Below, one piece after another: positions 26,992 to 42,109 of a stretch of DNA of 64,000 bases. Below the pieces are notes generated by a model. That model saw nothing but the letters and a program-made list of their open reading frames with translations. It ran no database searches and was not told where the DNA came from. Origin of the DNA: a virus; the IMG/VR virus record IMGVR_UViG_3300050821_018642, positions 5,133-69,132 of that record; one strand, written 5' to 3'. A program made the position numbers and the translations under genes. Numbering within the stretch: position 1 is the stretch's first letter; the number at the start of each line of letters is the position of its first letter.

Positions 26992-28094
26992 TTCTGCCTC
27001 CGCTCAATCCACTCATTACACGCGCGCTTCCAATCCGGCGCTTCTATACCGTCAAGACAGGTGAACATACTGTATGAATCTTTCCATTTGCGATACGTCC
27101 AGGTTAGGAACATCGGAATAGCAACGGTCTCCATGAAAGCTGTATTCATGGGCGGTACGTTGAACGCCGCTTCCCACGCCGCTGGTGTCGGGTCGTTGAT
27201 ACCTACAGTATCAGGCGGTTGTGGTTGACGTATAAGACCGCGCGCCCACGTCATGAACTTCGATAGGTCCTCATCGAAGCCGGGTTCCAGCGCCGGACCC
27301 ATGTCTGGAAGCTTACCTAGTGAATCGCTCTCCAGCGCAATTTGTTCCAGCTTCTCTCGGTTAAAGACATCGGTATAGACATGAAAGTTGTTACTAAACT
27401 GCCGATACACACCCATCGGAATGCCGATGCGCATTGCCATGTACTCGTGGAAGAAACTGAAGTGCACGGCGTTGGCTCCGTAGCAACCCCATATGATGTC
27501 ATTGCTGCGATTGCATACGGTAATATTCAACTTCCCACCGCGACAATCCAGATATACGTGCGTATTGCACGGAACATCCAGACCACCGTGGGTGGCTACC
27601 TGTAGGTCGTGGTCATGTAGATCTGGATTGTCGCGATTCATCGTGCGATTCTGATCGTAATCCCCGGCTCCAGGCCAAGCATTCCACATCGTCAGCACAC
27701 ATCGCCTGGATTTAGGGTCTTTCTTTAACTCTGCTATGATGGCCTCCAGCTGGTCCCAGCCGAAGAAGTTGCGCCAACGCCAGCCGTATGCACCCCACGA
27801 TGTAACGCCGTCGTCGCTATAGGCGCGCATCTGCTTAGCGAAGTATTCGACGAACTCTACGTCGTTGGCACCGCTGAGAATCCAGAGCGATTCCATAACG
27901 TGGAAGAAAGGATTTGCATCACGTAGCGGGCTGAATAGCACGCGGCGACGTGGGTTTACGTACTCCGTAAGCACTGGACCCGGTGCAACGATCACCGAGC
28001 CATTGCGCGATTGTTCCTCTACGCCTTCACGTAGAAGATAGTTGATGCCGATCTGTAATGCGGCATTTACATCATCGGTCTTAAAGCTATACAT
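26988..28094 (-). CDS. thymidylate synthase-family enzyme (dUMP hydroxymethylase candidate)
   Basis: Aligns to ThyA along its length: ESLWILSG, YGWRWRNFFGWDQLEAII..LK.DPKSRRCVLTMWN, VPCNTHVYL..GGKL..CNRSNDIIWG.YGAN. His147 of ThyA is replaced by Asn, and there is a ~100-aa C-terminal extension. Start ATG at 28094 has a GAGGAG RBS. Confidence 0.65.
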   Translation of the reverse strand: MYSFKTDDVNAALQIGINYLLREGVEEQSRNGSVIVAPGPVLTEYVNPRRRVLFSPLRDANPFFHVMESLWILSGANDVEFVEYFAKQMRAYSDDGVTSWGAYGWRWRNFFGWDQLEAIIAELKKDPKSRRCVLTMWNAWPGAGDYDQNRTMNRDNPDLHDHDLQVATHGGLDVPCNTHVYLDCRGGKLNITVCNRSNDIIWGCYGANAVHFSFFHEYMAMRIGIPMGVYRQFSNNFHVYTDVFNREKLEQIALESDSLGKLPDMGPALEPGFDEDLSKFMTWARGLIRQPQPPDTVGINDPTPAAWEAAFNVPPMNTAFMETVAIPMFLTWTYRKWKDSYSMFTCLDGIEAPDWKRACNEWIERRQK

Positions 28095-28965
28095 ACGTCT
28101 CCTCGCTCGGTGTGAAGTGCTGCTTCGCTCTACGTCCAAGGTATTTTACCTTGAAGTACTTTCCTATTTCGCAAAGTGTGTTCTGCGTGTCTTGGGCCGA
28201 CAGACCGTGCAGTTCGCTCGGTAGCTTCGGGAGTGCTGTATCCATCAACTTCAGTAACGTGCTGTGCCACTCTTCTTCATTCCAACGCTCTGTGACGTCG
28301 CGACCCGTTACCCAGTTCAAACCACGTCGCGAGCCTGGACCACTAGCGGCAAAGGTATGCCAGTCGTCAGCGTTCTTGCCGGCCGGAGTGTACTTGACAT
28401 CGCCCACTACCTGCGCTGCCATAAAGCCAGCACCGAATCCGTGGAACTGCATCAGCGAATTATGTAGTCCACGTAGTGATGTACAGGTACGCAGCTCTTC
28501 GCCCAGCGCTTTGCGTCCTGACCACAATGGACCCAGTACGCACGTAGACAGGTAGCTAGCCTTGCTTTGACCTTTGGTAGCGCCAACTGCATTTATCATA
28601 TACGCATTATTGTAGGCGCAAAGACCGCGCTCACGTCGTGCATCCATGATACGTACGAAGCGCTGCGGATTCCAGCGTTCTGGGTAGCCTAGTTCCTCCA
28701 TAGTGGCTGGTAGATTCACCAGCCGTGCAAGGCACATAGCGAATACCACGGTATCATAATCCGTGGCGTGCGGAAGAAGCCATGATCCGTGTATCCATTT
28801 AGTAACGCGGTCGTCGTTACGACGCACGTTCGTAAAGCGGTACTTCTGAAGTATTGGATCCTTGGTCCAGGGTGCTGGTTTACCTTCCAGACGACGTTGA
28901 TGGATGTTCCACCGCTCCGTTACGAAGTCAGTGAATTCCCTAAGCCTTGGAAACAGCTTGCTCAT
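28087..28965 (-). CDS. uncharacterised protein, candidate DNA-modification enzyme
   Basis: 292 aa with no P-loop; translationally coupled between the ThyA-homologue and the nucleotidyltransferase. Confidence 0.4.
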   Translation of the reverse strand: MSKLFPRLREFTDFVTERWNIHQRRLEGKPAPWTKDPILQKYRFTNVRRNDDRVTKWIHGSWLLPHATDYDTVVFAMCLARLVNLPATMEELGYPERWNPQRFVRIMDARRERGLCAYNNAYMINAVGATKGQSKASYLSTCVLGPLWSGRKALGEELRTCTSLRGLHNSLMQFHGFGAGFMAAQVVGDVKYTPAGKNADDWHTFAASGPGSRRGLNWVTGRDVTERWNEEEWHSTLLKLMDTALPKLPSELHGLSAQDTQNTLCEIGKYFKVKYLGRRAKQHFTPSEETYV

Positions 28966-29692
28966 ACGCCTCCAGTTGCTCTGGGGTGCCTACCACATGA
29001 AATTCCTTCTCCGGTATTTCGTGGAGAAGTACGTCGCCCATACGCAGCATATAACTGTGTACTGGAGCTAGGTAGAACTCGCCATTCGTGGAGTTGTCGT
29101 AGAATACCATAGCCGCGATTGCAGCACGTAGCCTACTCCACGTCTTAAATACGTGGACGCCGCACGTAGCCATGTCGCTGATAGGCTGCTTCTCCACGAT
29201 GCGTGTAACTTCTTGGCCTTCATACTCCACGAAGCTGTAACGCGCGCTACCGTCCGTCGGCTTGAACGTCAGCACCATGGATACGGTGGAACTGAGCGGA
29301 TGTGTGAAGTGCGCCTCCGCGTGCGCTACAAACGCCTTGATAAGCGCTGGATCGATGATACTGTCACAATCCATTACCAGCACCGGCTGGTCTTCGTCCA
29401 GGACGGCTGCGGCTGCAAGAAGCGTCATAGCCGCGCCGCGCTGCGTATGCTGTACGCCGATGATCTTAGGTACGCAATCCTCCGGCGCTTCCGTCCATAC
29501 ATCATGTCGAATGGATTGTGGACATAGTACGATGGCTTCGTGAATTTCCGTACCCAAAGACACAGCCATAGCCTGTCTAAGTGCATACCATATCATAGCA
29601 TGCCCGTTGACCGGTATGAGCGGTTTCATCTGTGTATAGCCAGCGCTTGCAAAGCGATCGCCGCGCCCAGCGGCTAGGATTACTACTTGCAT
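28940..29692 (-). CDS. sugar-1-phosphate (or phospho-alcohol) nucleotidyltransferase
   Basis: N-terminal MQVVILAAGRGDRF...KPLIPVNGHAMI NTP_transferase signature; RBS GGAGGA 6 nt before ATG 29692. Confidence 0.6.
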   Translation of the reverse strand: MQVVILAAGRGDRFASAGYTQMKPLIPVNGHAMIWYALRQAMAVSLGTEIHEAIVLCPQSIRHDVWTEAPEDCVPKIIGVQHTQRGAAMTLLAAAAVLDEDQPVLVMDCDSIIDPALIKAFVAHAEAHFTHPLSSTVSMVLTFKPTDGSARYSFVEYEGQEVTRIVEKQPISDMATCGVHVFKTWSRLRAAIAAMVFYDNSTNGEFYLAPVHSYMLRMGDVLLHEIPEKEFHVVGTPEQLEAYEQAVSKA

Positions 29693-30495
29693 TTGACTTC
29701 CTCCATTCGTTCTTCGAGATTCATTGCGAGGTTCAGTGCCCACTCCCTGGCATGTGGCTGTACCTTGTACAGCCGTACCAGGTGTGTAACGAGGTAGTAA
29801 GCGCAAAGTTCCAGGTTAAGCCGCTCCACTTGTAAGAACGCTTTGATCATCTCGCGTTCCACAACGTCACAGCTAGTGGTACAAGCTATGCTGTCATAAC
29901 CGAAGAACGACTGCAGAAGCTTGCCGCCGTCCAATTCAGCCTCTAGCGGAAGCGGTCTTGTGGATGGATCAATCCACAAGCCACCAGCCATGATGTTCTC
30001 CAGCGTAGGATCACCGTGTACATTCTTCACCATACGGTTTCCAGTTATCCAGCGTGCTCCGCCTTTCCACGTCTGTTTTAGTACTTCACGAAGCGCAGGT
30101 TCTGTTGCCAATTCAAGCTGCTCTTCGTAATCGTACGCACGATCACGCTCAGCTCCGCCTACCCAGTGTGGTACCTTCCACAACACTGATAAGCGTACAA
30201 GTGCATTAGCCGTGTCTTCCATCGTAGCTGGTCCAAGCATAGGCATGAAGTAAGAACACGCATTTTCGTCGGAATCACCGAATTCTACTTCCACGAATAT
30301 TTCTGGGAAATGTCGCATCTTTACAGCTTGACGCACCACTCCCGGTCCGCTCTTGCGTATCCATGGTTCCAGCGTCGCTCCGGAGTTACGCTTCACTTTG
30401 TTATCTATCACCACCACGTTCTCCTGTTCTCCGTACAAGTATTCTTCACAGTCCTTACACAACCCAGATGCCTCCATACAACGTGGACAGCTCAC
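29683..30495 (-). CDS. APH/choline-kinase-fold kinase (anomeric sugar kinase candidate) with N-terminal zinc ribbon
   Basis: Catalytic loop VHGDPTLENIM (HGDxxxxN) and LWIDPS; CPRC...CKDC at the N-terminus; GTGA overlap with the upstream gene. Confidence 0.5.
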   Translation of the reverse strand: MSCPRCMEASGLCKDCEEYLYGEQENVVVIDNKVKRNSGATLEPWIRKSGPGVVRQAVKMRHFPEIFVEVEFGDSDENACSYFMPMLGPATMEDTANALVRLSVLWKVPHWVGGAERDRAYDYEEQLELATEPALREVLKQTWKGGARWITGNRMVKNVHGDPTLENIMAGGLWIDPSTRPLPLEAELDGGKLLQSFFGYDSIACTTSCDVVEREMIKAFLQVERLNLELCAYYLVTHLVRLYKVQPHAREWALNLAMNLEERMEEVKCK

Positions 30496-31352
30496 TTCTT
30501 CACTCCGCTGGACTCGTAGGCCTTCTTCCAGGCCACCACCACTTCCTTGCGCTTGATGGAGCCCTTGTAATCGCGGTCCACCACTTTGACGAACGGCGCG
30601 TGCAGCTTCTGTAGTACGAAGCACTGTGCGTCGCTGTACTCCATGGAGCGCTCGCCCGAGCAGCCTCCGGCCGCACCGAAGCTTCCGTATTCGTTGTTCA
30701 GGAGCTCCACGAAGCTGTGACCCTGTTCGCCTTTACGCAGCATACTCAGTACAACGTGGAAGTCCTCGCGCAGCCCGACGGCATCGAATCGAATCTTGTA
30801 CTTCTTGTAGCGCTCCGGGTCTACACCGAAGGCGTACATCATCCGGCCGTTGATATGCCACGATTCCTTCTGCTTGTCGCTGTGGCGTCGGTGCGCTATA
30901 CCGAGCATGGCCGGTGCGTGAGTGCCGTAGCGGGCGTCCAGTTGCTCAAATAGCTTCAGCAGCACGGCGTCTTTGGGGTAGCGCCGCATCATCAAGGCGG
31001 TCCCGGTTGGAGCTCCAGGCTTGATGCCGTAGGCCTGTCGGTCTTCCTCCCATACACGCCACTTGGGTGGGCACCGTTCGAAGAACGCAATGTCGTCGTC
31101 CATCATAAACAGGAGACGATCTCCGTTCTTCGGTAGGTTCGTCATGATCCAGTGACGTTTGGCCGCGATGGACTTTGTGCCCTTCGCTAGAACCACCTCA
31201 TTGTCTGGGTACAGCGCTTGTAGCGCCTTGGCTTCTTCCGGAAGCGACGGAACCAGTACCACTTCCTTCTGTAACGACGTAGGCAGTGCGCCCAGCGTGA
31301 TCTGTTTGTTTACGCGTCCATGCGTAGGTATGACAAGCGTGATGTTCTTCAC
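30492..31352 (-). CDS. GT-A-like glycosyltransferase
   Basis: N-terminal ITLVIPTHGR and DxD-like FMMDDDIAF; RBS AAGGAG. Confidence 0.45.
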   Translation of the reverse strand: MKNITLVIPTHGRVNKQITLGALPTSLQKEVVLVPSLPEEAKALQALYPDNEVVLAKGTKSIAAKRHWIMTNLPKNGDRLLFMMDDDIAFFERCPPKWRVWEEDRQAYGIKPGAPTGTALMMRRYPKDAVLLKLFEQLDARYGTHAPAMLGIAHRRHSDKQKESWHINGRMMYAFGVDPERYKKYKIRFDAVGLREDFHVVLSMLRKGEQGHSFVELLNNEYGSFGAAGGCSGERSMEYSDAQCFVLQKLHAPFVKVVDRDYKGSIKRKEVVVAWKKAYESSGVKK

Positions 31353-31461
31353 AGGCTAAAGCTCCTTGCTGAATTTAAGAAATGTATCCAGAGACACGAA
31401 TGCCGCCCGATACGCTGGGCGGCATTGTAGATTACAGAAAACTAATTCTGACTTTCTGGTC

Positions 31462-33498
31462 TTAGACTACCTTGATGTAGCCCTGCTTCGCGAGCCACGC
31501 GATCTCGATGCGGCGACCCGGCTTGGGGTTCTTCTTGTCTTTGTCCAGCTTGGCCTGCGCCTCGCTTACTGTCTTGCTGCTGAGCGCGGCGTTCACCTGA
31601 GCGAAGCAGAAAGTTCCTTCGCGAAGCTCGTTCTTCTTTTTGAGCGCCTTGATCTCGCGATCCGCGACGACGCGCTCGACCTTTTCCTTTGGAGCCTTCT
31701 TGGTTGCTTCTTTCTTCGAAGGAACTGCGACTGGTCCCTTCTTACCGGTCTTGGCGGGAGGAGCAAACTTTGCGGACTTGATGGATACGGCTGCTGATGC
31801 TGTCATGGCTACGATCTCCTTGCAGTGGTTTAGAACTGCGGTTAGGTGGCGCGCGGCCACTGGCGTTACTGCTACCGAAGGTACAATGGGATTCAGTAAC
31901 TGGTTCGCGGCTTTAATCAGCTCATCTACTTCTCTGGTAATCGGCCGCAATCTGTTCAGTTTCTCGTTCGGGATTACCCCACAGGCAACCCTCACACCAT
32001 TATTATACACGCAAATTGCGCCTTGTGAATTTGCGGGCTCCAACTGCATCATGGCGATACCGTTAGTTGGGTCTTCCAGAAGACGTATAGAATCCTTGTC
32101 CAAGACTACCTCCGCATCCGGCTTAGGCACCGGGTACTGTTCAGCCGTCACGGCTAGTGAGTAGATCACTTCGCGACGAGCAGCGTTATCATAAGCGGCA
32201 CGTGCCTTCTTGCTCATGGGCGTGCCGGTGTCCAGGATGGTGCCCGGGACGGTACGCTCCATGACGGTAGCGCGTTTCACCTGAGCTATCTGGGCCTTCT
32301 CCGCACGTGTAGCCGCACTCTTCAGGGTGCGAATCTTAGTGCTGACTTCCTTACAGCGCTTTGCGAATGCCGTAGACTTCGCTGCAGCGGAGCGTCCTTC
32401 TACGCCTATCGCACTGTAGAATGCCTCGGTGAGATTATTGATGCCGCATTCTTTGGCTAGTATACGATCGCGTTTGAAAAGCTGCTTCAGAAGCGCCATC
32501 CGCTTACCGTAATACTTGTCGCCGCGTAGAAGGTCCAGATCGAAGCGCTGAAGCGTCAATCCGCCTAGCATCTCGACGGCTCGTACCACGTGGGACGGTA
32601 CGCCGTCTATCGTTTCTACGCGTACATTCTGTGGCGACAGTAGGCCTTTCGCAGCCAGGTCCAACACGGAACGCCCCTCGGCTACAGCAGCTTCAGTCTT
32701 CGCCTGATCAGCGGCCAATCGCTTAGCACGACGCTGGTCCGACGCCAGCGCCTTATTGCAGAGACTCTTAGTAGCCGTTGAAGCCAGCGTAGCCTGCAGT
32801 TCCTTCACGCTAGTTCCGCCGCGCTCCAGTCCATTCTTCGCCATCAGCTTGTAGCCAGCACCCGGGACGTACATCACGGCGCGTCCATCCGCATGACTGT
32901 AACCATACGCTACGCGCTTACCGGTACCGCCCGGCTGCGCACTTTCCTGTGCCTGAATGAACGTGAACCTGGACTTGATCAGTTCCGCGTTAATAGCGTC
33001 CTCCGGCGGTACCAGCTTCGCTGGTGCAGGCTTCTTCTTGGAAACCGTCGCGCTGAGTTCGGTGAGACGCTCGGCCTTATCGTCTTGCTCCTTGGCTTCT
33101 TCCAGTGCTTCTATCTTCGCGGGATCATCAGCCAACGTACGACGTCCAGTCGTCGGATCTACTTTACGCGTTCTAGCGTATTCCAGAACTGGATCATCAA
33201 CACCTAGATTGACCGCTGTATGCCCATTCGACGCGTGCTTGGCCTCCAGGAATTGGCTACGCAGTTTCTGCGCCGTCGCCATGTTGGTTTTCAGGCGTCC
33301 GGCCAGTACGTTCATGGGTGTATCCGCCTTGGTGGTCAGGATCTCCACGCATTTTGTATAGAGATCATCACCGGCTGCGGCTACTACGACGGCTGCGGCC
33401 TCACTACTGACTAACGGTAGACCATCGTACTTGGAAAGTACTGGTGCGTTAACATTGGACTTCGCGACGTCGGCCTTTACAGCAACTTTCTTTGTCAT
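31462..33498 (-). CDS. large hypothetical protein (678 aa)
   Basis: Long Lys/Ala-rich ORF with coherent codon usage; RBS inside a conserved stem-loop. Confidence 0.5.
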   Translation of the reverse strand: MTKKVAVKADVAKSNVNAPVLSKYDGLPLVSSEAAAVVVAAAGDDLYTKCVEILTTKADTPMNVLAGRLKTNMATAQKLRSQFLEAKHASNGHTAVNLGVDDPVLEYARTRKVDPTTGRRTLADDPAKIEALEEAKEQDDKAERLTELSATVSKKKPAPAKLVPPEDAINAELIKSRFTFIQAQESAQPGGTGKRVAYGYSHADGRAVMYVPGAGYKLMAKNGLERGGTSVKELQATLASTATKSLCNKALASDQRRAKRLAADQAKTEAAVAEGRSVLDLAAKGLLSPQNVRVETIDGVPSHVVRAVEMLGGLTLQRFDLDLLRGDKYYGKRMALLKQLFKRDRILAKECGINNLTEAFYSAIGVEGRSAAAKSTAFAKRCKEVSTKIRTLKSAATRAEKAQIAQVKRATVMERTVPGTILDTGTPMSKKARAAYDNAARREVIYSLAVTAEQYPVPKPDAEVVLDKDSIRLLEDPTNGIAMMQLEPANSQGAICVYNNGVRVACGVIPNEKLNRLRPITREVDELIKAANQLLNPIVPSVAVTPVAARHLTAVLNHCKEIVAMTASAAVSIKSAKFAPPAKTGKKGPVAVPSKKEATKKAPKEKVERVVADREIKALKKKNELREGTFCFAQVNAALSSKTVSEAQAKLDKDKKNPKPGRRIEIAWLAKQGYIKVV

Positions 33499-33609
33499 GT
33501 GTGTATGCGGTCCTTTCTAACCGCTGCACTACTTACCTTGTTAGAAAAGCTATGAACAGCGCAATCGCGCACAGCGCGAGCATCAAGCGTTCGTACCGTT
33601 CCTGACGAG

Positions 33610-34653
33610 TCACTTCCCCAGTCCTTTCTTCGGTGTACCGGCAGAAACCTGTCCGTCTAGCCCGATGTCGTCGCCCTTGGCGCGTCCAGCCCGGTACGCG
33701 CCAGAGTTCAGCCGCGCCTCGCGCCGTTCGTCCTCGCGATCCTGACGACGCCAGTAGGATTCACTGAAGCGCTCGTTACGACGCGCCTCTTTAGCTTCTT
33801 CGCGTTCGCGCTTGGCTTTCTGCGCGGGCGTCTCCAGCGCTCGCTTGGCAGCTAGCTCAGCGTCGCGTATGCGCTGGCGTTCCGCTACCGCTTCATCAGA
33901 CCAGTACTTCTCCGCCTCCGCTTCACGAGCTAGCTTCTTAGCCCACGCACCGGCTCCATATTGATGGTCGTAGTTTCCAGCCGCCTCCTTACGGGCGAGG
34001 TCGGCGACCTGGATGGCGGTGGTGTAGGCCTTTTCACCTTGAGTAGCGTAATCGGCCGTTTTCATAGCCTCAGCTTTCGCCTTGACGCGTTCTACGAGCC
34101 GGTCCGCGCAGCCTTCACGCCAAAGATTGGCATTACGACTCAGGCGCTCGTTCTGTGGATACGGTAGCAAACGCTCGATGGTATCCAGCAGGTAATCCAC
34201 CATGATCATTACAGCGGTGGTGTTGGCTATGCGGCCGAGAACCTTGTGGCGCTTGACGCGAATTTCCGCGCGTCCATTCTCGTCGTAGTCCTCGTAAGGC
34301 TTACGATTCTTTGGCGGGATGTAGGTCAGCTCCCGCGTCTCATCGACCCAGTAGACGCAGAAGTTGGCTTCGGCCAGGACGCGTACAAGCGCTTGTTGCC
34401 ACTTGTACATCGCGCTTCGCTTGGACTGAGCGTAGTCGCGCTTGGATTCAGCTTCACGCGCTGCGGTGCCACCGGCTACCACCTTGTCCTGGACGGTAGC
34501 CAGGTCAAGGTTGTACTGCGCCAATAGCTCCTGGGCGCGCGCCATCGCGGCAGCGGCTTCCTGCTCGTTTCCTTCGGACCGTGCGCCGAGGTTCAGTAGA
34601 AGCTGAATCTTACGTACGATGGAATCAGAGGGTGGTACGTTCATCGTTGCCAT
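33610..34653 (-). CDS. DUF2786-like phage protein
   Basis: N-terminus VRKIQLLLNLGARSEGNEQEAAAAMARAQELLAQYNL resembles the DUF2786 N-terminal helix; Arg/Glu-rich C-terminus. Confidence 0.4.
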   Translation of the reverse strand: MATMNVPPSDSIVRKIQLLLNLGARSEGNEQEAAAAMARAQELLAQYNLDLATVQDKVVAGGTAAREAESKRDYAQSKRSAMYKWQQALVRVLAEANFCVYWVDETRELTYIPPKNRKPYEDYDENGRAEIRVKRHKVLGRIANTTAVMIMVDYLLDTIERLLPYPQNERLSRNANLWREGCADRLVERVKAKAEAMKTADYATQGEKAYTTAIQVADLARKEAAGNYDHQYGAGAWAKKLAREAEAEKYWSDEAVAERQRIRDAELAAKRALETPAQKAKREREEAKEARRNERFSESYWRRQDREDERREARLNSGAYRAGRAKGDDIGLDGQVSAGTPKKGLGK

Positions 34654-34654
34654 T

Positions 34655-35485
34655 TTACCGCACCGCCATTTCTGCGTTGTTGAGTTCGCGTTGGAAACCG
34701 TTCCACTCGTTGACGCTCATGTTGTTGGAAATCGTAATTTCCTTGACACTGTAACGCTTTCGTTCGCCAGTAAGCGGAAGGAATTCCACGGTCTTCATCT
34801 TCTTGTAGTCAGCGGCGTTCACGTATCCCCACACCGACCCACCACAGAAGTGGTGTACAGCCGGAATTAGATTCGCGTTGTTCTTTAGGTAGCCGAGCCA
34901 ACTAGCTTGACCGATCTTCTGTTCGTCGGCCGCGCGCTCTTCGCGGCAAGCCACGCCGTGAGCCTGACCAATACGCAGCCGTTCATCGCGGTCGGTAACG
35001 CCGTGCAGCTTATAGGCGAGTGTACCCGGGACGTGAGGATTCTGAGGAGTGGGCGCTTCCACGTACGCCCGGATTCCATCTAGCGCTGCGATGAACTGGC
35101 TAGTGTAGCCAATCACGCCGTTCCACGTCAGGTACATGTCAAAGAGTTCTTCGACGGTGGAATTCTCCATCACGAAGTCGGCGTCATCATGCGGCCGATT
35201 TTCTTCCAGGAACTCGCGGATATCGCTATCGACGTTGGATGGAAGCGAGGATGACTTGGATACCGTCTTCTTCTCTACAGGTACATCCAGTTCCAGTGCT
35301 TCTGGAGTAGCCCACGCTTGCACTCCGCCGTAGCCCTTCTTGACGACGATGTGACCGTCGCGGCGAAGGTGGACGACTTCCGTATGGATCGTAGCGCCAC
35401 CATGACGGTAAATTACCTTGTCGCCCTTCTTGAACTTCGAGGTCGTTTTCTGGCTAACTGCTTGATTCTGCTTGGATTGCTTCAT
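34655..35485 (-). CDS. hypothetical protein
   Basis: 276 aa; RBS stem-loop GCCGTTAGAAAGGACGGC upstream of the ATG. Confidence 0.5.
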   Translation of the reverse strand: MKQSKQNQAVSQKTTSKFKKGDKVIYRHGGATIHTEVVHLRRDGHIVVKKGYGGVQAWATPEALELDVPVEKKTVSKSSSLPSNVDSDIREFLEENRPHDDADFVMENSTVEELFDMYLTWNGVIGYTSQFIAALDGIRAYVEAPTPQNPHVPGTLAYKLHGVTDRDERLRIGQAHGVACREERAADEQKIGQASWLGYLKNNANLIPAVHHFCGGSVWGYVNAADYKKMKTVEFLPLTGERKRYSVKEITISNNMSVNEWNGFQRELNNAEMAVR

Positions 35486-35486
35486 T

Positions 35487-35504
35487 TGTCAGGCCGTCCT
35501 TTCT
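35487..35504 (-). promoter_or_regulatory. conserved RBS-containing stem-loop GCCGTTAGAAAGGACGGC
   Basis: AGGA in the loop, 12 nt before the ATG; paralogous copies at 33504..33521 and 40553..40570. Confidence 0.35.
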
Positions 35505-35600
35505 AACGGCTACCTAAATTATAACTCGGATTTCTGGCCAAGAAAAGGTTTATTTTCTGGCCTTTAGGCCCAACTTTGCGATGCAAAGTCTACTACGGTT

Positions 35601-35930
35601 TCAGGCGTTTCGCGCGGCGCACTCCGTACAGCGTGTAGTCAGGTCACGTAGCGCCGAGTACCTGTCCACGCGTACAGCGCTGTACAAGCGTAGCGTACGT
35701 ACATGGACGTGACGTAGCGGACTACGATGACGGTAGCCGCGCCGCTGAAGTTCGCGTACAAGCGCTGCGTGTCGACGCTCCAGGCTCTTGGGCTCCACGC
35801 AATTATGCGCAATGAAGCCTTCAATACGCCTTCCACGGCGTAGATGCCCAACGAACATGTGCAGTTCCACGTGCTCACCGAGTAGATGTTTGCGGCACAT
35901 CACACGCGGGTCCACCATCCACATTCTCAT
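35601..35930 (-). CDS. pyrimidine-dimer DNA glycosylase-like protein (Pyr_excise-like)
   Basis: Strong RBS AAGGAGG; N-terminus MRMWMVDPRVMCRKHLLGEHVELH resembles the MRLWSLHP..L...L..E family. Confidence 0.4.
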   Translation of the reverse strand: MRMWMVDPRVMCRKHLLGEHVELHMFVGHLRRGRRIEGFIAHNCVEPKSLERRHAALVRELQRRGYRHRSPLRHVHVRTLRLYSAVRVDRYSALRDLTTRCTECAARNA

Positions 35931-36056
35931 TATTCCTCCTTACTACGGATACGACTGTCGACATCAGTAGTACGCCTCCAAGTATACAGAGCTCGAACAG
36001 ATGTTCTCTACACTGTACGCACACATCCAGATGACGATGGAAACGTTCACCGGCGG

Positions 36057-36404
36057 TCATGGTAGCTTCACTTTCTGCGTGCAATACCCGACGATGCGTC
36101 CATCCGTGTACAGCGCCGTTACGGAGAAGCTTATCTTCTTCCACACACAATACGCCACCAAGTATGGAGTGAACAATCCCATCGATGAGTGATTGACGCA
36201 GCCGTCGCGTTCGAATGCTTCCACCGTCATGCGTACGTTGGAGGCCGTAGGGTACACTCGCCGTACGCCTGGAAACGTCGGTGATTGCCACGGACTTGTT
36301 ACGCGGTAGCGCTTTCGTCCGTCGGCCTTGAGAATTTCCTCGATACCGAGTACGGGAATTTCCTTTGGCCAACGTATGGCGTATATCGGTTTTCCTGTCT
36401 TCAT
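36057..36404 (-). CDS. hypothetical protein
   Basis: Trimmed to the internal ATG with a GGAGGAAGA RBS; the longer track ORF has an Arg-rich junk-like N-terminus. Confidence 0.35.
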   Translation of the reverse strand: MKTGKPIYAIRWPKEIPVLGIEEILKADGRKRYRVTSPWQSPTFPGVRRVYPTASNVRMTVEAFERDGCVNHSSMGLFTPYLVAYCVWKKISFSVTALYTDGRIVGYCTQKVKLP

Positions 36405-36661
36405 TCTTCCTCCACTCTGTCCGGGTGCTCGAAGACGTTGAACTCGATTCCGGCCGCGCTCAACAGGACATCCAGCTTGTGCTCCGTTACGGATCGCTCC
36501 GCCGCGCTGTCGCTGTACACGTCGTCTTCGAATCCGCACGTACAGGACAACGACAGACGACGCTCGGAGTCGATCGGATTTCCTTTGCGCGAGAAGTACT
36601 GGATGGTCCTCCACTGTCGGTTCACCGTATGGATAATCTTTGGCGGTTTCTTAGCACTCAC
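36401..36661 (-). CDS. hypothetical protein
   Basis: 86-aa ORF coupled to its neighbours. Confidence 0.3.
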   Translation of the reverse strand: MSAKKPPKIIHTVNRQWRTIQYFSRKGNPIDSERRLSLSCTCGFEDDVYSDSAAERSVTEHKLDVLLSAAGIEFNVFEHPDRVEEE

Positions 36662-36836
36662 AATGATCTCCTAGCTTTTGAAACCAGCAGTCCGCCGGTT
36701 TACCGTTACGCAGCACTTCTATCCATCCACTCCACGTACCTTTGCCGGCTCGCACGGTAATTATGTCGCCGGTCTTTTTAGCGTCGCGCTTCATGCGTTG
36801 AAGCGTGCAGTAATTGCAAGGCGTGAGTTCACTCAT
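36651..36836 (-). CDS. small zinc-ribbon protein
   Basis: CNYC...CWF..GDHCEC. Confidence 0.3.
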   Translation of the reverse strand: MSELTPCNYCTLQRMKRDAKKTGDIITVRAGKGTWSGWIEVLRNGKPADCWFQKLGDHCEC

Positions 36837-37021
36837 TCCACCTCCTTCAGTATCGCGATGTAGAAACGATCAGCCCACTTCTTGGTATACGAAGCGTCTT
36901 CTTCCGCCTTCAATTCCTTCGCACGACGGAATGCCGTGGCGCGATTCGGCCGCGTATCGACGACCCAGTAGTCGTCGCCTTTGGCTTCGCGGCGTAGGAT
37001 GCTGTACTCTAGAATTGGCAT
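36833..37021 (-). CDS. hypothetical small protein
   Basis: Trimmed to the ATG just downstream of the upstream stop. Confidence 0.3.
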   Translation of the reverse strand: MPILEYSILRREAKGDDYWVVDTRPNRATAFRRAKELKAEEDASYTKKWADRFYIAILKEVE

Positions 37022-37025
37022 TGTA

Positions 37026-37874
37026 CTACCTCCTAGCGATGAATAGTTTCTTACTCGGTGGCTTAAATGGTTTCTCTGCTGGCCCTTTGATGTATGAATC
37101 AACAAATACAGCTCGCAATTCTTTGCGATCAGGTCCACAACGGTACTTGTGCCAATGTTCTTCTACCATCCATCTACAGGTGTAGTCACGATTAGCAGAG
37201 CCTTCACTTTCAGAGTGTTGTAACCGACGCAAAGTCACTACACGATACTCAGCAGGTAGGACATAACCTTTACGTTTTGCCAATGTGCGGCCTATAGACG
37301 TAGATTGCTGTCGTTCGATGGTGGCCAGTTTCTGTGCCATTAAATGAATTATGGCAGCAAACAATCTCAATCGTTTAGACTCACTACTAGCTGATTGTAA
37401 AGGTTTATTTAAAAAGCCTGTAGATTGTAGTAAATGTATTGCACCAACTTTCGCACTGATGTTTGTATACAGAAAGTGTATTGCATTCCAAGGATCTTGT
37501 TCCACAACACCAACAGTAGATGCTGTACACCACAATAAAGTATCTACTGGTTGGCCGTCAAGTAAAGTTGTTCTAGGTAAGTATAAAGCGCCTATAGGTG
37601 ACAAGAATTCTTCCTCTGCCAATACAAACTCCGGAGGCATAGTTTCAGCAGCACGTTCAGCTAACAATAGAAATTCCTCACTTAGAAAGAACTTCTCACC
37701 ATTTTGTAGTACCAGCCCAGCCATTGTGATGTAAGCACGCTGAACATTTGTAGAGTTATCGCCAGTTGCTCTAGGCGGCGGGAGCGCTTTCTGCAGTATT
37801 ACGTTAAACACAGATGTTTTCTCAAAAGCATTCAGTATACTAGCCAGCATTACGCCATCATCCTTTCCGCACAC
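37026..37874 (-). CDS. hypothetical protein encoded in a low-GC island
   Basis: 282-aa ORF; a sampled 100-nt stretch is 33% G+C against ~60% in the flanks. Confidence 0.5.
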   Translation of the reverse strand: MCGKDDGVMLASILNAFEKTSVFNVILQKALPPPRATGDNSTNVQRAYITMAGLVLQNGEKFFLSEEFLLLAERAAETMPPEFVLAEEEFLSPIGALYLPRTTLLDGQPVDTLLWCTASTVGVVEQDPWNAIHFLYTNISAKVGAIHLLQSTGFLNKPLQSASSESKRLRLFAAIIHLMAQKLATIERQQSTSIGRTLAKRKGYVLPAEYRVVTLRRLQHSESEGSANRDYTCRWMVEEHWHKYRCGPDRKELRAVFVDSYIKGPAEKPFKPPSKKLFIARR

Positions 37875-38356
37875 TCCGGGCCGATTCCGCGCTCGACAGA
37901 TTCAGGTACGGTAAGCTTACGGCCGCAGCGTCCGCACGTTCCCTCATGCCAGAACTCCATAGTCTTGCATGATTCACCGCCCTTCGCCATACGCGCTAGA
38001 AAGAAGGTGAACGCCTTCCAGGAAGGTGCGTCGACCGTCATGCGGCTATTCTTGGTGGCATGGAAGCCGGTGTTGTCGATCAGCCCCATGTAGGCATAAT
38101 CGTTCACATTGTCCGCGCCGCGTAAGAGACTTACGAAGTAAGTTTGTCCGTACTTAGCTACGCGGTCCGCATCGTTATCCTTCGGCTTACGTACCTTGTA
38201 CGTATACCTAGCTCGTGTCTGTACAGACACGAGCGTGAACGTAGCATTACCACCGAATACGAAGCGCCAGATGTCATCCCATTTCTCAAGTCGACCACGT
38301 TGACGATCAGGATCTACTTGGAAAGTGCGTGGTTCTTCAACTATAGATGAATTCAT
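37850..38356 (-). CDS. hypothetical protein with C-terminal zinc ribbon
   Basis: 168 aa; CKTMEFWHEGTCGRCGRK. Confidence 0.4.
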   Translation of the reverse strand: MNSSIVEEPRTFQVDPDRQRGRLEKWDDIWRFVFGGNATFTLVSVQTRARYTYKVRKPKDNDADRVAKYGQTYFVSLLRGADNVNDYAYMGLIDNTGFHATKNSRMTVDAPSWKAFTFFLARMAKGGESCKTMEFWHEGTCGRCGRKLTVPESVERGIGPECAERMMA

Positions 38357-38582
38357 GGCACGCTCCTCCCTTGTAAGCGCGCACGATGCGGCTCAACGGT
38401 CCGAACGAATCGCGCTCGCCCATGTGGAACGTGACGCGTTCGTAGCCGGCAGCTTCCAAGGCAGGCTTGGCCACCAAGTCCTCCCACTGCCAGTAGAACT
38501 CACCGCAGTAATCGTGCCCGGCGGCCAACGATTGCGGTATGACGTCGAATAAGTCTTTGTATCTACTACGCACCTTGGGCAT
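38337..38582 (-). CDS. hypothetical protein
   Basis: 81-aa ORF in the coupled early block. Confidence 0.3.
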   Translation of the reverse strand: MPKVRSRYKDLFDVIPQSLAAGHDYCGEFYWQWEDLVAKPALEAAGYERVTFHMGERDSFGPLSRIVRAYKGGACHEFIYS

Positions 38583-38817
38583 CGAGCATGTCCTCCTTCA
38601 GAGTATAGCTGACCAGCTCCTTTGGCCCGTCAACTACGCAAGCCACGAATAAGTCGCGGTTGTTGAATGCTGGGTGATTCATAAACAACCAAAGCGCGTG
38701 CTTGGCGTCAGAAGCTTGCACTTCCCATTTACTCGTCTGACGAGGGAACCTATTGCTGCGCAAAAAGACTACGGTGAACGGCTTAAGCACTGAGCTCATG
38801 TCGCCTCCATGCTCCAC
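38566..38817 (-). CDS. hypothetical protein
   Basis: 83-aa ORF. Confidence 0.3.
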   Translation of the reverse strand: MEHGGDMSSVLKPFTVVFLRSNRFPRQTSKWEVQASDAKHALWLFMNHPAFNNRDLFVACVVDGPKELVSYTLKEDMLDAQGA

Positions 38818-39130
38818 TGGGTGATGGCATGTAAACCGCGTGGACGTCCTTCTTGACGCTGCGCCCTGTCAGCGATACGCGATGGGACACCCAATTGCCG
38901 CTGTACGCATCCAGGTTCTCGATCCATACCGTAGGGTCGACGAAGTACAGCGGCACGTACTTACCCTTGAGTTCGCGCGCTTCGCGGCGGTCGCGGTCGC
39001 GCCTCTTGGCCTTGCGCTGCCGCGACGAGTCTGGATGCGGGTGCGGCGCGCCGAAGAAGAGCTCCGTCAACATGCCCTGGATGAACAGCTTGTGGCAGAC
39101 TTCCGGGTGTATCTCAATCACTTTCATCAT
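38783..39130 (-). CDS. hypothetical protein
   Basis: 115-aa ORF. Confidence 0.3.
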   Translation of the reverse strand: MMKVIEIHPEVCHKLFIQGMLTELFFGAPHPHPDSSRQRKAKRRDRDRREARELKGKYVPLYFVDPTVWIENLDAYSGNWVSHRVSLTGRSVKKDVHAVYMPSPSGAWRRHELSA

Positions 39131-39296
39131 CGTCCTCCGTATCCACGAAACCCAGGTCCGCGTTCAGCCGCTCCACGGCGTCGGCTTTCAGCATCAAGCG
39201 TTTTGCACCGGCTGGGATGTCCAGGCACGCGTCGTTCAACAGACCCTCCGTGATGTCGTCGTACGTAAGTACGAGTACGTTACCAGTCAGTATCAT
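39114..39296 (-). CDS. hypothetical acidic small protein
   Basis: 60 aa with a DTEDDDESD tail. Confidence 0.25.
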   Translation of the reverse strand: MILTGNVLVLTYDDITEGLLNDACLDIPAGAKRLMLKADAVERLNADLGFVDTEDDDESD

Positions 39297-39625
39297 AGCA
39301 CCACCTTCGCGCAGTTGACCGTCAAGTCCTCGTACTTCTCACTGATCAAGTCGCACGCCGTATGCATAGCGTGCCACAGGTTATCCAGCACTCGGTATTG
39401 GCTAGTGCCGTGCATGCGGTCTCGCTGCTCCATTATCTTCAACGAGGTGTCGAAGTTACGGAACGGCCAGACTACATCTATCTTGCGATCCAGTGGCTTG
39501 GACCGCAGTAGCAACTGCGCTAGGAATCCGTTCTCACGCGCGGTACCGAACTTGGTTTCATCGCCTATCTTGCACCCGGCCATGACACATACGCAGTCGT
39601 AGTGCAGCTTCGCCAACTCCACCAA
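39293..39625 (-). CDS. hypothetical protein
   Basis: 110-aa ORF. Confidence 0.3.
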   Translation of the reverse strand: MVELAKLHYDCVCVMAGCKIGDETKFGTARENGFLAQLLLRSKPLDRKIDVVWPFRNFDTSLKIMEQRDRMHGTSQYRVLDNLWHAMHTACDLISEKYEDLTVNCAKVVL

Positions 39626-39689
39626 GGCGTGAGCCTCCTCGCGGTGAAGGAGACCTTGAGTTCCACATGGTAGGAATACTCCAGGTAGT

Positions 39690-39962
39690 TCACGGCTGTA
39701 CCTCCTCGATGCCGCAGGACGTGAACGTCATGTCGTCTCCGCTGGAGCTGAACGTCACGGTCTTGCCGTCGTCCAGCGTCAGTATGTAGGTTCCCTCGTT
39801 GGTCGGATCGTAGTCCACAACGTTGATGGTGCGTCCGACCAACACGCGCAGTCGCTTTACCTCAGCCTTCGCCGCCCTATTCGCGTCGCGCTTCGCAGCT
39901 TCCACGGCGCGCAATTCCTCGCGCCGACGTTTCATAACAGATTTCATCGCCGGATAAGTCAC
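39690..39962 (-). CDS. hypothetical basic protein
   Basis: GTG start with AAGGAGG 6 nt upstream; the longer track ORF has a junk-like N-terminus. Confidence 0.3.
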   Translation of the reverse strand: MTYPAMKSVMKRRREELRAVEAAKRDANRAAKAEVKRLRVLVGRTINVVDYDPTNEGTYILTLDDGKTVTFSSSGDDMTFTSCGIEEVQP

Positions 39963-40089
39963 AGACGGCCTCCTTGCACGAGGTGCGTCTCTACATATGC
40001 CACCACTACTTGCGTCACCATGAACACCACACGGATGGTTACGAGTCCTACTACGAACGGTACGATGCGCTGCGCCCAGCGCGCGGCGT

Positions 40090-40302
40090 TCACGCAGCAC
40101 CTCCGGTGACAAGGCAGCCCCACATCAAAACAGGGGAGGCAATCGGATGCAGTTTGACGTTCGTCATCAATTCAAAGTCCGACCCACAAGGTACGTAGGA
40201 CACGCTGATAATGGAGTCTTCGACGTACAGCGCATCTTCGTAACCAGCCGGAACATACCTAGTGCCTTCTTCGAGTATGAGTTGCTCCAGAAGAGTCGTC
40301 AT
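40090..40302 (-). CDS. hypothetical protein
   Basis: Trimmed to the ATG overlapping the upstream stop. Confidence 0.3.
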   Translation of the reverse strand: MTTLLEQLILEEGTRYVPAGYEDALYVEDSIISVSYVPCGSDFELMTNVKLHPIASPVLMWGCLVTGGAA

Positions 40303-40544
40303 GCGCTCACCGCCTTCATCGCGCCGATGTGTCGAATGCCGGTATCCAGCGTTATGACGCTGTAGCCGGAACGTAGAAGATCCAGCTGCGCTTCTGCGGC
40401 TCCACGTGAGCCCCATGTGGTGGACGGAACCACACCGTTGTAAACAAGCATCCAGTGTCCCCTGAGACAGAACACTTCGTTGGGAAGTAGCTTCACTTTC
40501 GCGGCTACGTCGTAGTCGCGGTTTACCTTTCTGGTTGTCTTCAT
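40299..40544 (-). CDS. hypothetical protein
   Basis: Start moved to the Met at 40544 because a promoter-like TATAAT plus a conserved RBS stem-loop lie inside the longer ORF. Confidence 0.35.
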   Translation of the reverse strand: MKTTRKVNRDYDVAAKVKLLPNEVFCLRGHWMLVYNGVVPSTTWGSRGAAEAQLDLLRSGYSVITLDTGIRHIGAMKAVSA

Positions 40545-40578
40545 GATGGATAGCGGTCCTTTCCGAGCCGCTGTATTC

Positions 40579-40598
40579 ATTATAAACCAGCTGGTTTA
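40579..40598 (-). promoter_or_regulatory. promoter-like TATAAT overlapping perfect palindrome TAAACCAGCTGGTTTA
   Basis: Seen in sequence; a similar element lies at 57082..57101. Confidence 0.35.
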
Positions 40599-40609
40599 TT
40601 GCGTACGAA

Positions 40610-42109
40610 TTACCTACGTTTAACAGGCATCTTGCGCTTGTACTTCTTCTCGGCGTACTCCTTCATGGCGTCCAGAAAATCTTTCTGCTCCGTTCCCTTG
40701 CGCTTAAGATTTCGCATCTTTGCCACGTCTACAGTGTCGTCAGTGTAGAAAAGATGACGCATGACAAATTCAGCTTTATTACCCTGACGCCATACACGAC
40801 GAAACGCCTGATCGAAGTGATCGTAGTCGTCCGGTATAAAGAAGAACCCAACGTGACGCGCATTGAACTTCTGGAGATTCAGTGCATGTCCGGCCGAAGC
40901 TGGGTGGATCATCATCAACGGTAGCTGGCCCTTGTTCCAGGCTTCGATGTAGTCGGATGCTTGACCTCGCGTCGTCTTACTATTGATACAAGGAATATTC
41001 TTACCAAGAGCCTTGCGAATAGCGTCCACGTCGTGGTGGAAGCCTATGCAGAGTAGTAACGGTTCACCCTGCAGTTCGTTGTACAAGTCTACGACGGCGT
41101 CCACCTTGGCAGTATGTACGATCTTGTATGGACGCTCGCCGCTGTAGCGTTCGTCGTCGCTGTCTCGAGCGTCCAGGTATACAGCGCCATTGGCTATCTG
41201 CATACACTTGGCACGCGCCGAAGCACTGGAAGTCAGCGGCGCTGTGAATAGCGTACTCATGAGACTTTCCTCAATGGAGTCATACTCCTTCTGCACGCTG
41301 GCCGGCAACTCCACACGATGGTCGCGCTCCAACACCTTTGGAAGCTTCAAGTAATCGGCTGCATCCAGACGCAGAACTAGCGGAGCTACTAGCTTGTTGA
41401 TTTCCTTATCCTTACCTGGTACTAACTGCCATTCGTGCATCTGATAGCCAGTCTGGAAGAAGAAGTTATTGCGGTAATGCGAGATATACGAACCTAGTGC
41501 AGCTCCACGATCCAGGATGAAGATCTGTCCGAATAAGTCCAGGTAGTTACGCGGGCGCGGCGAGCCGGTCAGGATGTGCCGACGCTTGAAGTAGCCCTTC
41601 TCCACCAACGGCCGAAGACAACGGAAGCGTACCGTGGTGGGGTCCTTCCACCGCGACGACTCATCAATGATTAGCTCGTCGGCCTCCAGCATGTTGAGTC
41701 GCTTCTTACTGTCAGTGAGCCACTGGAAGCCTTCCGGATTGATCAGCGCGATAGGTTGATTGGTAAGCGTGCGTAGTGCGCGCTCCTTTCCAGGTCCATG
41801 AAGTAGAGCGATGTTGAGATCGTTGAAATCCTCCCAGCTACTTATCTGCTCCGGCCACACGTCGTATATAGCGCGTAGTGGTGCGACGATTAGTACGCGC
41901 TTTGTCAGGCGTTTCTTTAGAAGTATCTTTATGGATGCGAGGCTTATGCTCGTTTTCCCAAGTCCTGGATCTAGAAGTAGGCCGCTTTGTGCGAACTCCA
42001 GTACGAACTTCAGAGCTCGCTCTTGATACGCGTGCGGATTCCATGGCTCGGCGTTTGACTTCCACCCATTCATCTTCAGTGCTAACGACGCAGGTACTAT
42101 ATCCGTCAT
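40610..42109 (-). CDS. SNF2-family helicase
   Basis: Motif I LLLDPGLGKT, DESS (DExx box), and a C-terminal helicase domain. Confidence 0.75.
   Translation of the reverse strand: MTDIVPASLALKMNGWKSNAEPWNPHAYQERALKFVLEFAQSGLLLDPGLGKTSISLASIKILLKKRLTKRVLIVAPLRAIYDVWPEQISSWEDFNDLNIALLHGPGKERALRTLTNQPIALINPEGFQWLTDSKKRLNMLEADELIIDESSRWKDPTTVRFRCLRPLVEKGYFKRRHILTGSPRPRNYLDLFGQIFILDRGAALGSYISHYRNNFFFQTGYQMHEWQLVPGKDKEINKLVAPLVLRLDAADYLKLPKVLERDHRVELPASVQKEYDSIEESLMSTLFTAPLTSSASARAKCMQIANGAVYLDARDSDDERYSGERPYKIVHTAKVDAVVDLYNELQGEPLLLCIGFHHDVDAIRKALGKNIPCINSKTTRGQASDYIEAWNKGQLPLMMIHPASAGHALNLQKFNARHVGFFFIPDDYDHFDQAFRRVWRQGNKAEFVMRHLFYTDDTVDVAKMRNLKRKGTEQKDFLDAMKEYAEKKYKRKMPVKRR

Follow-up and report, generated by a model that had tools for sequence, protein, structure and literature searches.

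The hairpin at the locus

The DNA considered here is a stretch of 64,000 nucleotides (nt) from a virus, positions 5,133 to 69,132 of the IMG/VR record IMGVR_UViG_3300050821_018642, referred to as the window throughout. It is phage DNA with a G+C content of 55%, organized in a structural module that occupies the plus strand at 1-25 kb and a module of replication and nucleotide metabolism on the minus strand. Three minus-strand genes are immediately preceded by a small hairpin with a G+C-rich stem and a purine-rich loop that carries most of the Shine-Dalgarno (SD) sequence, and this hairpin is the subject of the present analysis. The three copies and the genes that they lead, with lengths in amino acids (aa), are as follows.

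31462..33498, minus strand: gene of 678 aa led by copy 1, with no function assigned and a hypermodification cluster downstream
33507..33524, minus strand: hairpin copy 1 (c1 type), GCGGTTAGAAAGGACCGC, with the stem GCGGT(U)/(G)ACCGC and GAAAGGA at the 3' edge of the loop
34655..35485, minus strand: gene of 276 aa led by copy 2
35493..35510, minus strand: hairpin copy 2 (c2 type), GCCGTTAGAAAGGACGGC, with the stem GCCGT(U)/(G)ACGGC
40299..40544, minus strand: gene of 81 aa led by copy 3, with the called start at 40544
40552..40572, minus strand: full hairpin of copy 3 (c3 type), AGCGG ctcggaaagga CCGCT, including GCGGCTCGGAAAGGACCGC (19 nt, 40571..40553)

The start codons behind copies 1, 2 and 3, at 33498, 35485 and 40544, match those called independently in the public record of the same contig. 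In the third gene, a mechanically derived open reading frame (ORF) of 93 aa begins at an ATG at 40580, which lies inside a -10 box, and not at the real start at 40544 of the 81-aa product, a trap for automatic annotation.

The three stem-loop sequences quoted in the original prediction are all present on the minus strand. The coordinates assigned to them are about right for copy 3 (40553-40570), and are off by 3 nt for copy 1 (given as 33504-33521) and by 6 nt for copy 2 (given as 35487-35504). A spacing of 12 nt to the ATG had been claimed to be identical in all copies, but the distance from AGGA to ATG amounts to 12, 11 and 12 nt in copies 1, 2 and 3, respectively. Stems of 5 base pairs (bp) are formed as proposed in copies 1 and 2; in copy 3, as originally bracketed, GCGGC/ACCGC has a C.A mismatch, and the true stem is AGCGG/CCGCT, closing a loop of 11 nt (40572..40552). 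The stems of copies 1 and 2 (GCGGT/ACCGC and GCCGT/ACGGC) differ by a compensatory swap of a G-C for a C-G pair. Folded as bare hairpins by ViennaRNA, both gain an extra U.G pair, resulting in a 6-bp stem, the loop AGAAAG, a free energy of -7.8 kcal/mol and a z-score of about -4. The location of AGGA in the loop holds in part. GAAAG is unpaired with a probability of about 1, but the terminal G and A take part in the stem of copies 1 and 2, where just two weak pairs (U.G and U-A) cover the final GA of the tract.

Recurrence of the hairpin in the window exceeds what is expected by chance. A degenerate pattern searched with at most two mismatches gave 2 matches against 0.18 expected, and 2 was not reached in any of 100 shuffles. 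Seven type-I copies served to build a covariance model, with which every position of the window was scored without filters; it ranked the same three sites first (E = 1.3e-7, 2.5e-7 and 0.78), nothing else coming close. The 19 other gene starts examined in the window, all following intergenic gaps, feature an open AGGAGG or AAGGAG at 4-9 nt, and no such hairpin. Rfam families gave no match at gathering scores in the whole window, and none at E <= 10 in the interval 33400-40700.

Conservation in related phages and association with promoters

A near-identity DNA search of the interval 33000-41000 against 50,697 phage records gave no match, nor did a tblastn search of the same records with the 678-aa protein. 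The nearest deposited relatives are Stenotrophomonas phage AXL3 and Pseudoxanthomonas phage PW916, with about 40% aa identity in DNA polymerase and SNF2 helicase. No relative was found among GTDB genomes, and a host could therefore not be assigned. Relatives were drawn from IMG/VR and JGI metagenomes, from 24 homologues of the 678-aa protein and from the contigs encoding seven of those, and make up a clade including loci L001, L002/L004, L005, L027-L033, L060, L155 and L156. An exact motif scan of IMG/VR returned zero matches, and a looser one (TATAAT-N10-14-TAGAAAGGA) 123 matches, nearly all of them due to chance and derived from AT-rich phages lacking a G+C stem. In total, window and metagenome relatives provided 27 instances of the hairpin, each located directly 5' of a start codon, and each recovered in the minimum free energy fold.

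The stems range from 4 to 8 bp and the loops from 6 to 13 nt. Arms are manifestly variable, and GCGG/CCGC, GCCGU/ACGGC, GCGCU/AGCGC, AGUGCU/AGCACU, GGCCG/CGGCC, CUCGG/CCGAG, CUAGGCAU/GUGCCUAG, GGUCGU/ACGACC and UCCGG/CCGGA all occur. Because loop lengths differ, plain MAFFT alignments set the 5' arms out of register; the structure alignment of the 27 instances took the closing pair as its anchor, loops being masked and artificial flanks added. Its five innermost pairs are standard ones in 23-27 of the 27 sequences, with 8-13 double-sided changes each, while three positions outside them, taken as an internal control, pair in 7-11 sequences. The covariation score is 0.696, compared to 0.21 for column shuffles (0 of 500 reached the observed value) and 0.05-0.15 for slid partners. 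Since an anchored alignment fits every hairpin individually, a chimera control was added, in which the 5' part of one instance was joined to the 3' part of another and stems were re-optimised. Stems of at least 5 bp were formed by 25% of the non-cognate, but 81% of the cognate combinations (permutation p < 1e-4). G.U pairs are present in the stems, and all the matches of the covariance model fall on the coding strand. Covariation, chimeras, G.U pairs and strand together exclude chance and an operator in duplex DNA. On this comparative evidence the hairpin is to be regarded as a selected sense-strand RNA structure, neither fortuitous nor a DNA operator, and as an undescribed RNA motif supported by covariation.

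The position of the SD sequence is constrained as well. In every instance GAA(A/G)GGA, the purine tract, ends the loop on its 3' side and directly adjoins the 3' arm, and the distance from its GG to the ATG is 11-13 nt in 22 instances (range 7-14). The linker between hairpin and AUG is A/C-rich, and its length anticorrelates with that of the 3' arm (rho = -0.51, p = 0.006). A makes up 49% of the first 21 coding nt behind the hairpins, but 31% in 216 other genes called at these loci (p = 1e-13). An A-rich, unstructured linker followed by first codons of the same kind is the signature of an initiation region built for use, not for silencing. The notion that the copies share an RNA-level element of the translation initiation region is thus backed both by covariation and by the constrained location of the purine tract relative to stem and ATG.

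The original prediction missed the link of the hairpin to the promoter. Of the 27 instances, 18 have a TATAAT box 4-7 nt upstream of the stem (copies 2 and 3, where the distance is 7 and 6 nt, respectively, and 16 relatives), and the stem therefore begins at the predicted transcription start (+1). All the 18 promoter-linked instances have a purine as the 7th nt past TATAAT (TATACT in one), and the stem starts at -2..+1 of the predicted transcription start; predicted leaders measure 21-30 nt, mostly 25-26, and thus consist of little else than the hairpin. The stem of copy 2 begins 1 nt after the predicted start, in a leader of 26 nt, that of copy 3 at the predicted +1, an A, in a leader of 28 nt. 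The hairpin is found at nearly all the intergenic TATAAT boxes of the clade. The label of early genes is plausible for the hairpin-led genes, given sigma-70-type promoters in the replication module. Promoter elements of the window are listed below.

35518..35523, minus strand: -10 box TATAAT of copy 2, the 7th nt downstream being A
35525..35542, minus strand: weak stem-loop CTTGG ccagaaat CCGAG, ending 1 nt before the copy-2 -10 box (TTATAATTT follows), terminator-like and composite with the promoter
35549..35556, minus strand: A-tract AAAATAAA, upstream of the weak -35 box (TTTTCT) of the copy-2 promoter
40579..40584, minus strand: consensus -10 box TATAAT of copy 3
40582..40599, not stranded: 18-bp perfect palindrome ATAAACCAGCTGGTTTAT, between the helicase stop and the copy-3 -10 box, which it overlaps by 3 nt

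Both the AAAATAAA tract and the weak -35 box are conserved in the c2-type promoters of relatives. The tract resembles an UP element, and may function as such. Since -35 boxes are weak, the cassettes were not flagged by a consensus promoter/terminator scan. The palindrome ATAAACCAGCTGGTTTAT forms a stem-loop that has the copy-3 -10 box as its U-rich tail, and covarying counterparts of it (TAAACC/GGTTTA, ACCGCCT/AGGCGGT, TTAAACTA/TAGTTTAG) are found in seven of eight relatives. By analogy with the PeSL elements of T4-type phages, the stem-loop overlapping the -10 box of the c3 type is viewed as a composite terminator-promoter layout.

Hairpins at +1 are not confined to leaders of this kind. In L027 a +1 hairpin without SD is found on a leader of about 110 nt, and in distant, AXL3-like relatives a hairpin is often located 5-7 nt past the -10 box, ahead of the SD. 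Both support an independent role of +1 hairpins. The distant relatives also share a highly conserved promoter, TTGAAAATAGGTGTTTACA-N17-TAGAAT/TATGAT/TATAAT, along with the conserved ribosome-binding context CTTGCTGAGG; sites are at 13500 in L003 (AXL3), 4256 in L007, 4096 and 11458 in L008, 3291 in L017, 1289 and 8149 in L022, and several in L012. An 11-bp inverted repeat in L012 joins the promoter spacer (AAGGTGGTTGG) to +17..+27 (CCAACCACCTT), a DNA-level feature not seen in the window. The third intergenic TATAAT of the window (57082-57087, minus strand) lies upstream of a 308-aa gene (ATG at 57050), with a leader of 25 nt and no hairpin.

A subset of the hairpins is devoid of promoters. 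The features pertinent to them are the following.

33533..33613, minus strand: hydrophobic small ORF of 26 aa (MTRQERYERLMLALCAIALFIAFLTR), the GTG of which overlaps the TGA of a 347-aa gene (GTGA)
33525-33533, minus strand: RGYAGTRCA site of the window; the corresponding sites are at 2558 in L001, 9963 in L027, about 9965 in L031, about 9890-9900 in L032 and about 9965 in L033
3542..3557, plus strand: fourth, looser member, GCGCT gcaagg AGCGC, 7 nt before the ATG of gene 3565-4032 of the structural module, without a promoter

Copy 1 has no promoter; 8 nt separate it from the stop codon of the 26-aa ORF on one side, and 8 nt from the ATG of the 678-aa gene on the other. As the 26-aa ORF is coupled to the 347-aa gene, a DUF2786 gene, copy 1 is inside an operon. 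Similar small ORFs are found in L001 and L027. Eight orthologous sites, preceding the 678-aa homologues, retain the hairpin with compensatory changes in the stem, 4-29 nt after a stop codon and with no -10 box. RGYAGTRCA, located directly 5' of the c1-type hairpins, is conserved though upstream genes differ, and is explained by neither pairing nor a -10 box. The shorter GTAGTRC was rejected as a copy-1-specific motif, being a frequent word genome-wide in these phages. The hairpin of the late gene is kept with different stems in L155 (UCGG/CCGA) and L156 (CGCUU/GGGCG). It was missed by the type-I covariance model run over the window; a homologue search with the 155-aa late protein gave no match, while one with the neighbouring 467-aa protein did retrieve relatives. 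A promoter-less hairpin with the SD in the loop, TGCAC caaaagga GTGCA atcg ATG, likewise occurs upstream of the dCMP deaminase gene in L028 (15437-15454), preceded by the terminator-like GGCGG aaa GCCGCC.

The genes behind the cassettes vary. Proteins encoded downstream of c2-type cassettes of different phages share only about 7 first codons (M-x-Q-x-x-K-N). The c3-type cassettes are always found just downstream of the helicase, before at least five unrelated families of small ORFan genes. L060 has two copies with identical hairpins on opposite strands, and cassettes are positioned at the boundaries of variable gene blocks, a placement also known from T4 PeSLs. Comparison of hairpin-led and neighbouring genes with Pfam and PHROGs revealed no function and no RNA-binding candidate (ten products against PHROGs, five of them also against Pfam); further neighbour genes were covered by precomputed Pfam matches only.

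Possible roles of the hairpin

All functional statements on the hairpin rest on sequence inference. The best explanation, to which a probability of about one half is assigned, is that the element represents the transcribed leader of a compact promoter-leader cassette, in which a 5'-terminal protective stem-loop would be fused to a structured ribosome-binding site. Cassettes of this general kind are known, and no new regulatory principle is involved. The start of copies 2 and 3, as of the 18 promoter-linked instances overall, at the predicted +1 points to the role of a 5'-terminal stem-loop. Such stem-loops stabilise the ompA, papA and aprE mRNAs (PMC3997798, citing Emory 1992, Bouvet 1992, Bricker 1999 and Hambraeus 2002), and the RppH enzyme of B. 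subtilis requires at least 2 unpaired 5' nt in vitro (PMC3997798). Terminal pairing, by leaving 0-1 unpaired nt at the 5' end, would shield the phage transcript from 5'-end-dependent decay carried out by RppH, and then by RNase E. E. coli RppH has a similar preference for unpaired 5' nt. The loop would still present GAAAG to the 30S subunit, with just two weak inner pairs to be melted, and the message would eventually be both long-lived and translatable. A leader of 25 nt is too short to host a 5' hairpin and a separate SD, and the SD may for this reason have been put in the loop, as far 3' as possible; its location at the 3' side would account in turn for the long but constant spacing to the ATG. 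An exposed GAAAG, followed by an A-rich unstructured linker and codons, would permit efficient de novo initiation. This is needed because hairpin-led genes follow untranslated gaps, while most of their neighbours are coupled by overlapping stop and start codons. At sites lacking a promoter, as copy 1 and the late gene at 3565, the hairpin may work as a self-contained, insulated ribosome-binding site after an untranslated gap or, alternatively, as the protected 5' end of a processed transcript. The role at promoter-less sites is the weakest step of the explanation.

Several data weigh against a protective leader. The +1 is set solely by the spacing from the -10 box, and three intergenic -10-like boxes of the clade (two TATAAT, one TAAAAT; window 57087, L029 6574, L033 6838) are not accompanied by a hairpin. 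No promoter is recognisable at the nine c1-type sites or at those of the late gene; 5'-end protection is thus not the whole story, and requires there an unproven processing step. As to translation, the SD-AUG spacing is 4-5 nt longer than the norm of the phage, and a hairpin of -7.8 kcal/mol pairing the last two SD bases, in combination with the long spacing, could equally lower translation. Finally, the loop UAGAAAGGA is conserved beyond the need of a plain SD.

Part of these data also feeds the main alternative, according to which the hairpin is a translational operator, either repressing translation directly or bound by a phage or host protein that co-regulates the hairpin-led genes, in the style of the MS2 coat-replicase operator, the T4 gp43 and RegA operators, or CsrA/RsmA acting on GGA hairpins. 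In its favour, the loop UAGAAAGGA stays the same across phages with proteins of only 35-50% identity, whereas the stems vary; the paired GA, the stability of the stem and the long spacing fit repression, and the occurrence of the same hairpin at promoter-less sites makes a purely 5'-end role insufficient. On the other hand, the loop varies in other members (CUGAAGGGA, AAUAAGGAG, GCAAGG), each leader has a single GGA, placed at the loop/stem junction, none of the ten neighbouring products compared with PHROGs (five also with Pfam) is an RNA-binding candidate, and the A-rich unstructured surroundings suggest high, not repressed, initiation. An operator of this type is unlikely. Occlusion of the ribosome-binding site until a factor opens the hairpin, as envisaged in the original prediction, is not supported either, GAAAG being shown in the loop, with two weak pairs on the GA, in an A-rich context and with no trans-acting factor identified. 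Quite unlikely, in turn, is the view that the hairpin is a dedicated recognition module. A phage or host protein might read the hairpin with GAAAGGA at the junction, and co-ordinate a small regulon of uncoupled early and late genes; or the SD-anti-SD helix might stack coaxially on the stem, in a pseudoknot-like docking on the 30S platform. Coaxial stacking would account for the SD always adjoining the 3' arm, and for the tolerance of a 12-nt spacing.

The arrangement of the genes lends some appeal to a different hypothesis, that promoter, hairpin, SD, ATG and first codons are kept mainly as a homology patch for the swap of accessory genes, the hairpin having little function as RNA. The unrelated ORFan families behind c3-type cassettes, the handful of codons shared behind the c2 type, the two identical hairpins of L060, and the c3-type stem-loop overlapping the -10 box, as in PeSLs (PMC2839356), are all in line with it. 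Homologous recombination, however, needs sequence identity, and the stems diverge by compensatory change both within (GCGGT, GCCGT, AGCGG) and between genomes, selection acting on pairing instead of identity. The hypothesis is improbable as a replacement for the protective leader, with which a recombination role is otherwise compatible. Still less probable is a signal for RNA processing, in which the hairpin, along with RGYAGTRCA in copy 1, would direct an endonuclease, the cut either inactivating the SD, as with RegB, or producing a stable downstream mRNA, as in papBA. Copy 1 and its eight orthologues do lie within operons, shortly after a stop codon, next to a motif conserved despite different upstream genes, and T4 RegB cuts GGAG in early SDs when GGA is unpaired, with constraints on the fourth base (PMC3014915). 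Yet in the window copies GGAC runs into a G+C arm and does not match GGAGRAYARAA, GTAGTRC turns up frequently in these genomes, the proteins searched included none resembling RegB, and the promoter-linked majority of the hairpins would be left unexplained; processing of either type is conceivable for the c1 type only. Hardly credible, at last, is a DNA-level operator, an inverted repeat bound by a dimeric repressor shutting the promoters off. An inverted repeat does overlap the +1 of two window promoters, but half-sites differ within one genome, and covary rather than stay conserved; G.U pairs would not match in DNA, a promoter is missing from one third of the instances, and all the instances are on the sense strand of the downstream gene, at a fixed distance from the ATG.

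The protective leader suggested for the phage hairpin has counterparts in known systems. Hairpin hp1 of ompA and the papA hairpin in E. coli, like that of the aprE leader of B. subtilis, are placed at the very 5' end of the transcript or 1-2 nt away from it, a position that is predicted for the phage hairpin of copies 2 and 3 and 16 relatives, and papA is also an example of an internal 5' end generated by processing and shielded by a stem-loop. Differences are that the phage leader is only 21-30 nt long, that the SD is inside the hairpin and not downstream of it, and that the element recurs as a family in a clade of phages. The leader of T7 phi10, exploited in pET vectors, begins with a +1 stem-loop credited with mRNA stabilisation, ahead of a strong ribosome-binding site; its synthesis depends on T7 RNA polymerase, it is longer, and its SD lies outside the hairpin.

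As a repeated composite cassette, in which AT-rich tract, sigma-70-type promoter, stem-loop, SD and ATG precede variable ORFan genes, the element is akin to the PeSLs of T4-type phages (PMC2839356, PMC4122927). A sigma-70-type promoter and an AT-rich tract followed by SD and start codon are indeed found (TATAAT, AAAATAAA tracts, weak -35, SD, ATG), and the stem-loop over the c3-type -10 box is like the commonest PeSL layout. The stem-loop of PeSLs is, however, a terminator located between or over the -35 and -10 boxes. The phage hairpin is downstream of the -10 box, is transcribed from +1, lacks a U tract and carries the SD, and its identification with the PeSL stem-loop itself was rejected on the basis of position, membership of the leader and lack of a U tract. 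PeSL hosts are T4-like, while the phages described here are siphovirus-like, with 55% G+C, and unrelated to them; PeSL-like exchange would be suggested here by gene content only, that is by unrelated genes behind homologous cassettes.

Hairpins overlapping ribosome-binding sites are typical of FourU and ROSE thermometers and of T4 genes e and mobE, and copies 1 and 2 similarly pair two U residues with the GA of GGA. In thermometers and SD-sequestering hairpins pairing involves the whole SD, in a helix that is either weak or avoided through an alternative transcript. An SD-occluding hairpin or RNA thermometer was rejected, as the loop holds most of the SD, and physiological temperature would not suffice to melt the 4-bp G+C core. 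CsrA/RsmA sites have the GGA centred in the loop of a short hairpin, with usually two or more GGA per target, one of which overlaps the SD. A CsrA/RsmA site was rejected because GGA is at the loop/stem junction, copies 1 and 2 have the GA paired, and each leader of 21-30 nt has a single GGA. An intrinsic terminator was discarded as well, since the hairpin is followed by AUACACAC, CUGACAA or AUCCAUC, and was not reported by the terminator scan. Like the operators of T4 gp43 (5-bp stem, 8-nt loop), MS2 and RegA, the element is a small hairpin at or near a phage ribosome-binding site, and its dimensions are similar to those of gp43. The gp43 hairpin, however, is upstream of the SD (PMC3014915), and the hairpin between coat protein and replicase genes of MS2 contains the AUG. 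T4 RegB sites, which occur in early intergenic regions, consist of GGAG followed by an A-rich tract (GGAGRAYARAA; PMC3014915), and were rejected because in the window copies GGAC is followed by CGC or GGC. No comparable leader hairpin is described in an ONT-cappable-seq study of Pseudomonas phages (PMC10914365).

The motif belongs to a clade of uncultivated siphovirus-like phages equipped with thymidine-hypermodification genes, and may be exploited to pin down likely transcription starts and true start codons in genomes known from sequence alone. The cassette would represent a natural promoter-leader part of about 60 bp, made of a consensus -10 box, a +1 hairpin, an SD and an A-rich start, which bears on the combination of mRNA stability with translatability. 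The presence of unrelated genes behind homologous cassettes would extend beyond T4-like phages the PeSL idea of regulatory cassettes at the boundaries of gene exchange.

Additional features of the window and its relatives

The gene of the uncharacterised 678-aa protein is always immediately upstream of the hypermodification cluster. In the window, this gene set (26428-31352, minus strand) includes TAGT, NTP_transferase, HMUDK_hel (5-hmdU DNA kinase), thymidylate-synthase-like and YfbR-like genes. In relatives (L027-L034), where it is found 3' of the 678-aa homologue, ADDT, aGPT-Pplase, SPASM, dCMP deaminase and DNA methylase are added. The gene that follows the 678-aa gene, TAGT, starts with GTG behind an open AAGGAG. 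The 678-aa gene is trailed, 40 nt after its stop codon, by GCCGCCC agcgtatc GGGCGGC (31402-31423, minus strand), a G+C-rich, terminator-like hairpin with a poor U tract. In L027 a homing-endonuclease gene of the GIY-YIG/NUMOD3 type is inserted into the hypermodification cluster (15748-15770). Its own TATAAT is located 5 nt before the ATG, which would give rise to a nearly leaderless transcript.

Elsewhere in the window, two very large structural ORFs occupy the plus strand at 12193-16953 (1586 aa) and 17014-22845 (1943 aa), the latter with repeated Fn3_assoc and CHB_HEX_C_1 domains. A protein of 864 aa encoded on the minus strand (61357-63951) has Major Vault Protein shoulder and repeat domains (PF11978, 2.5e-21; PF17795, 4e-10), unusual for a phage. 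Between its gene and the next one, at about 61300-61345 of the minus strand, a strong hairpin resembling an intrinsic terminator is found, AAGGCACGGAC...GTCCGTGCCTT, followed by CTTTT.

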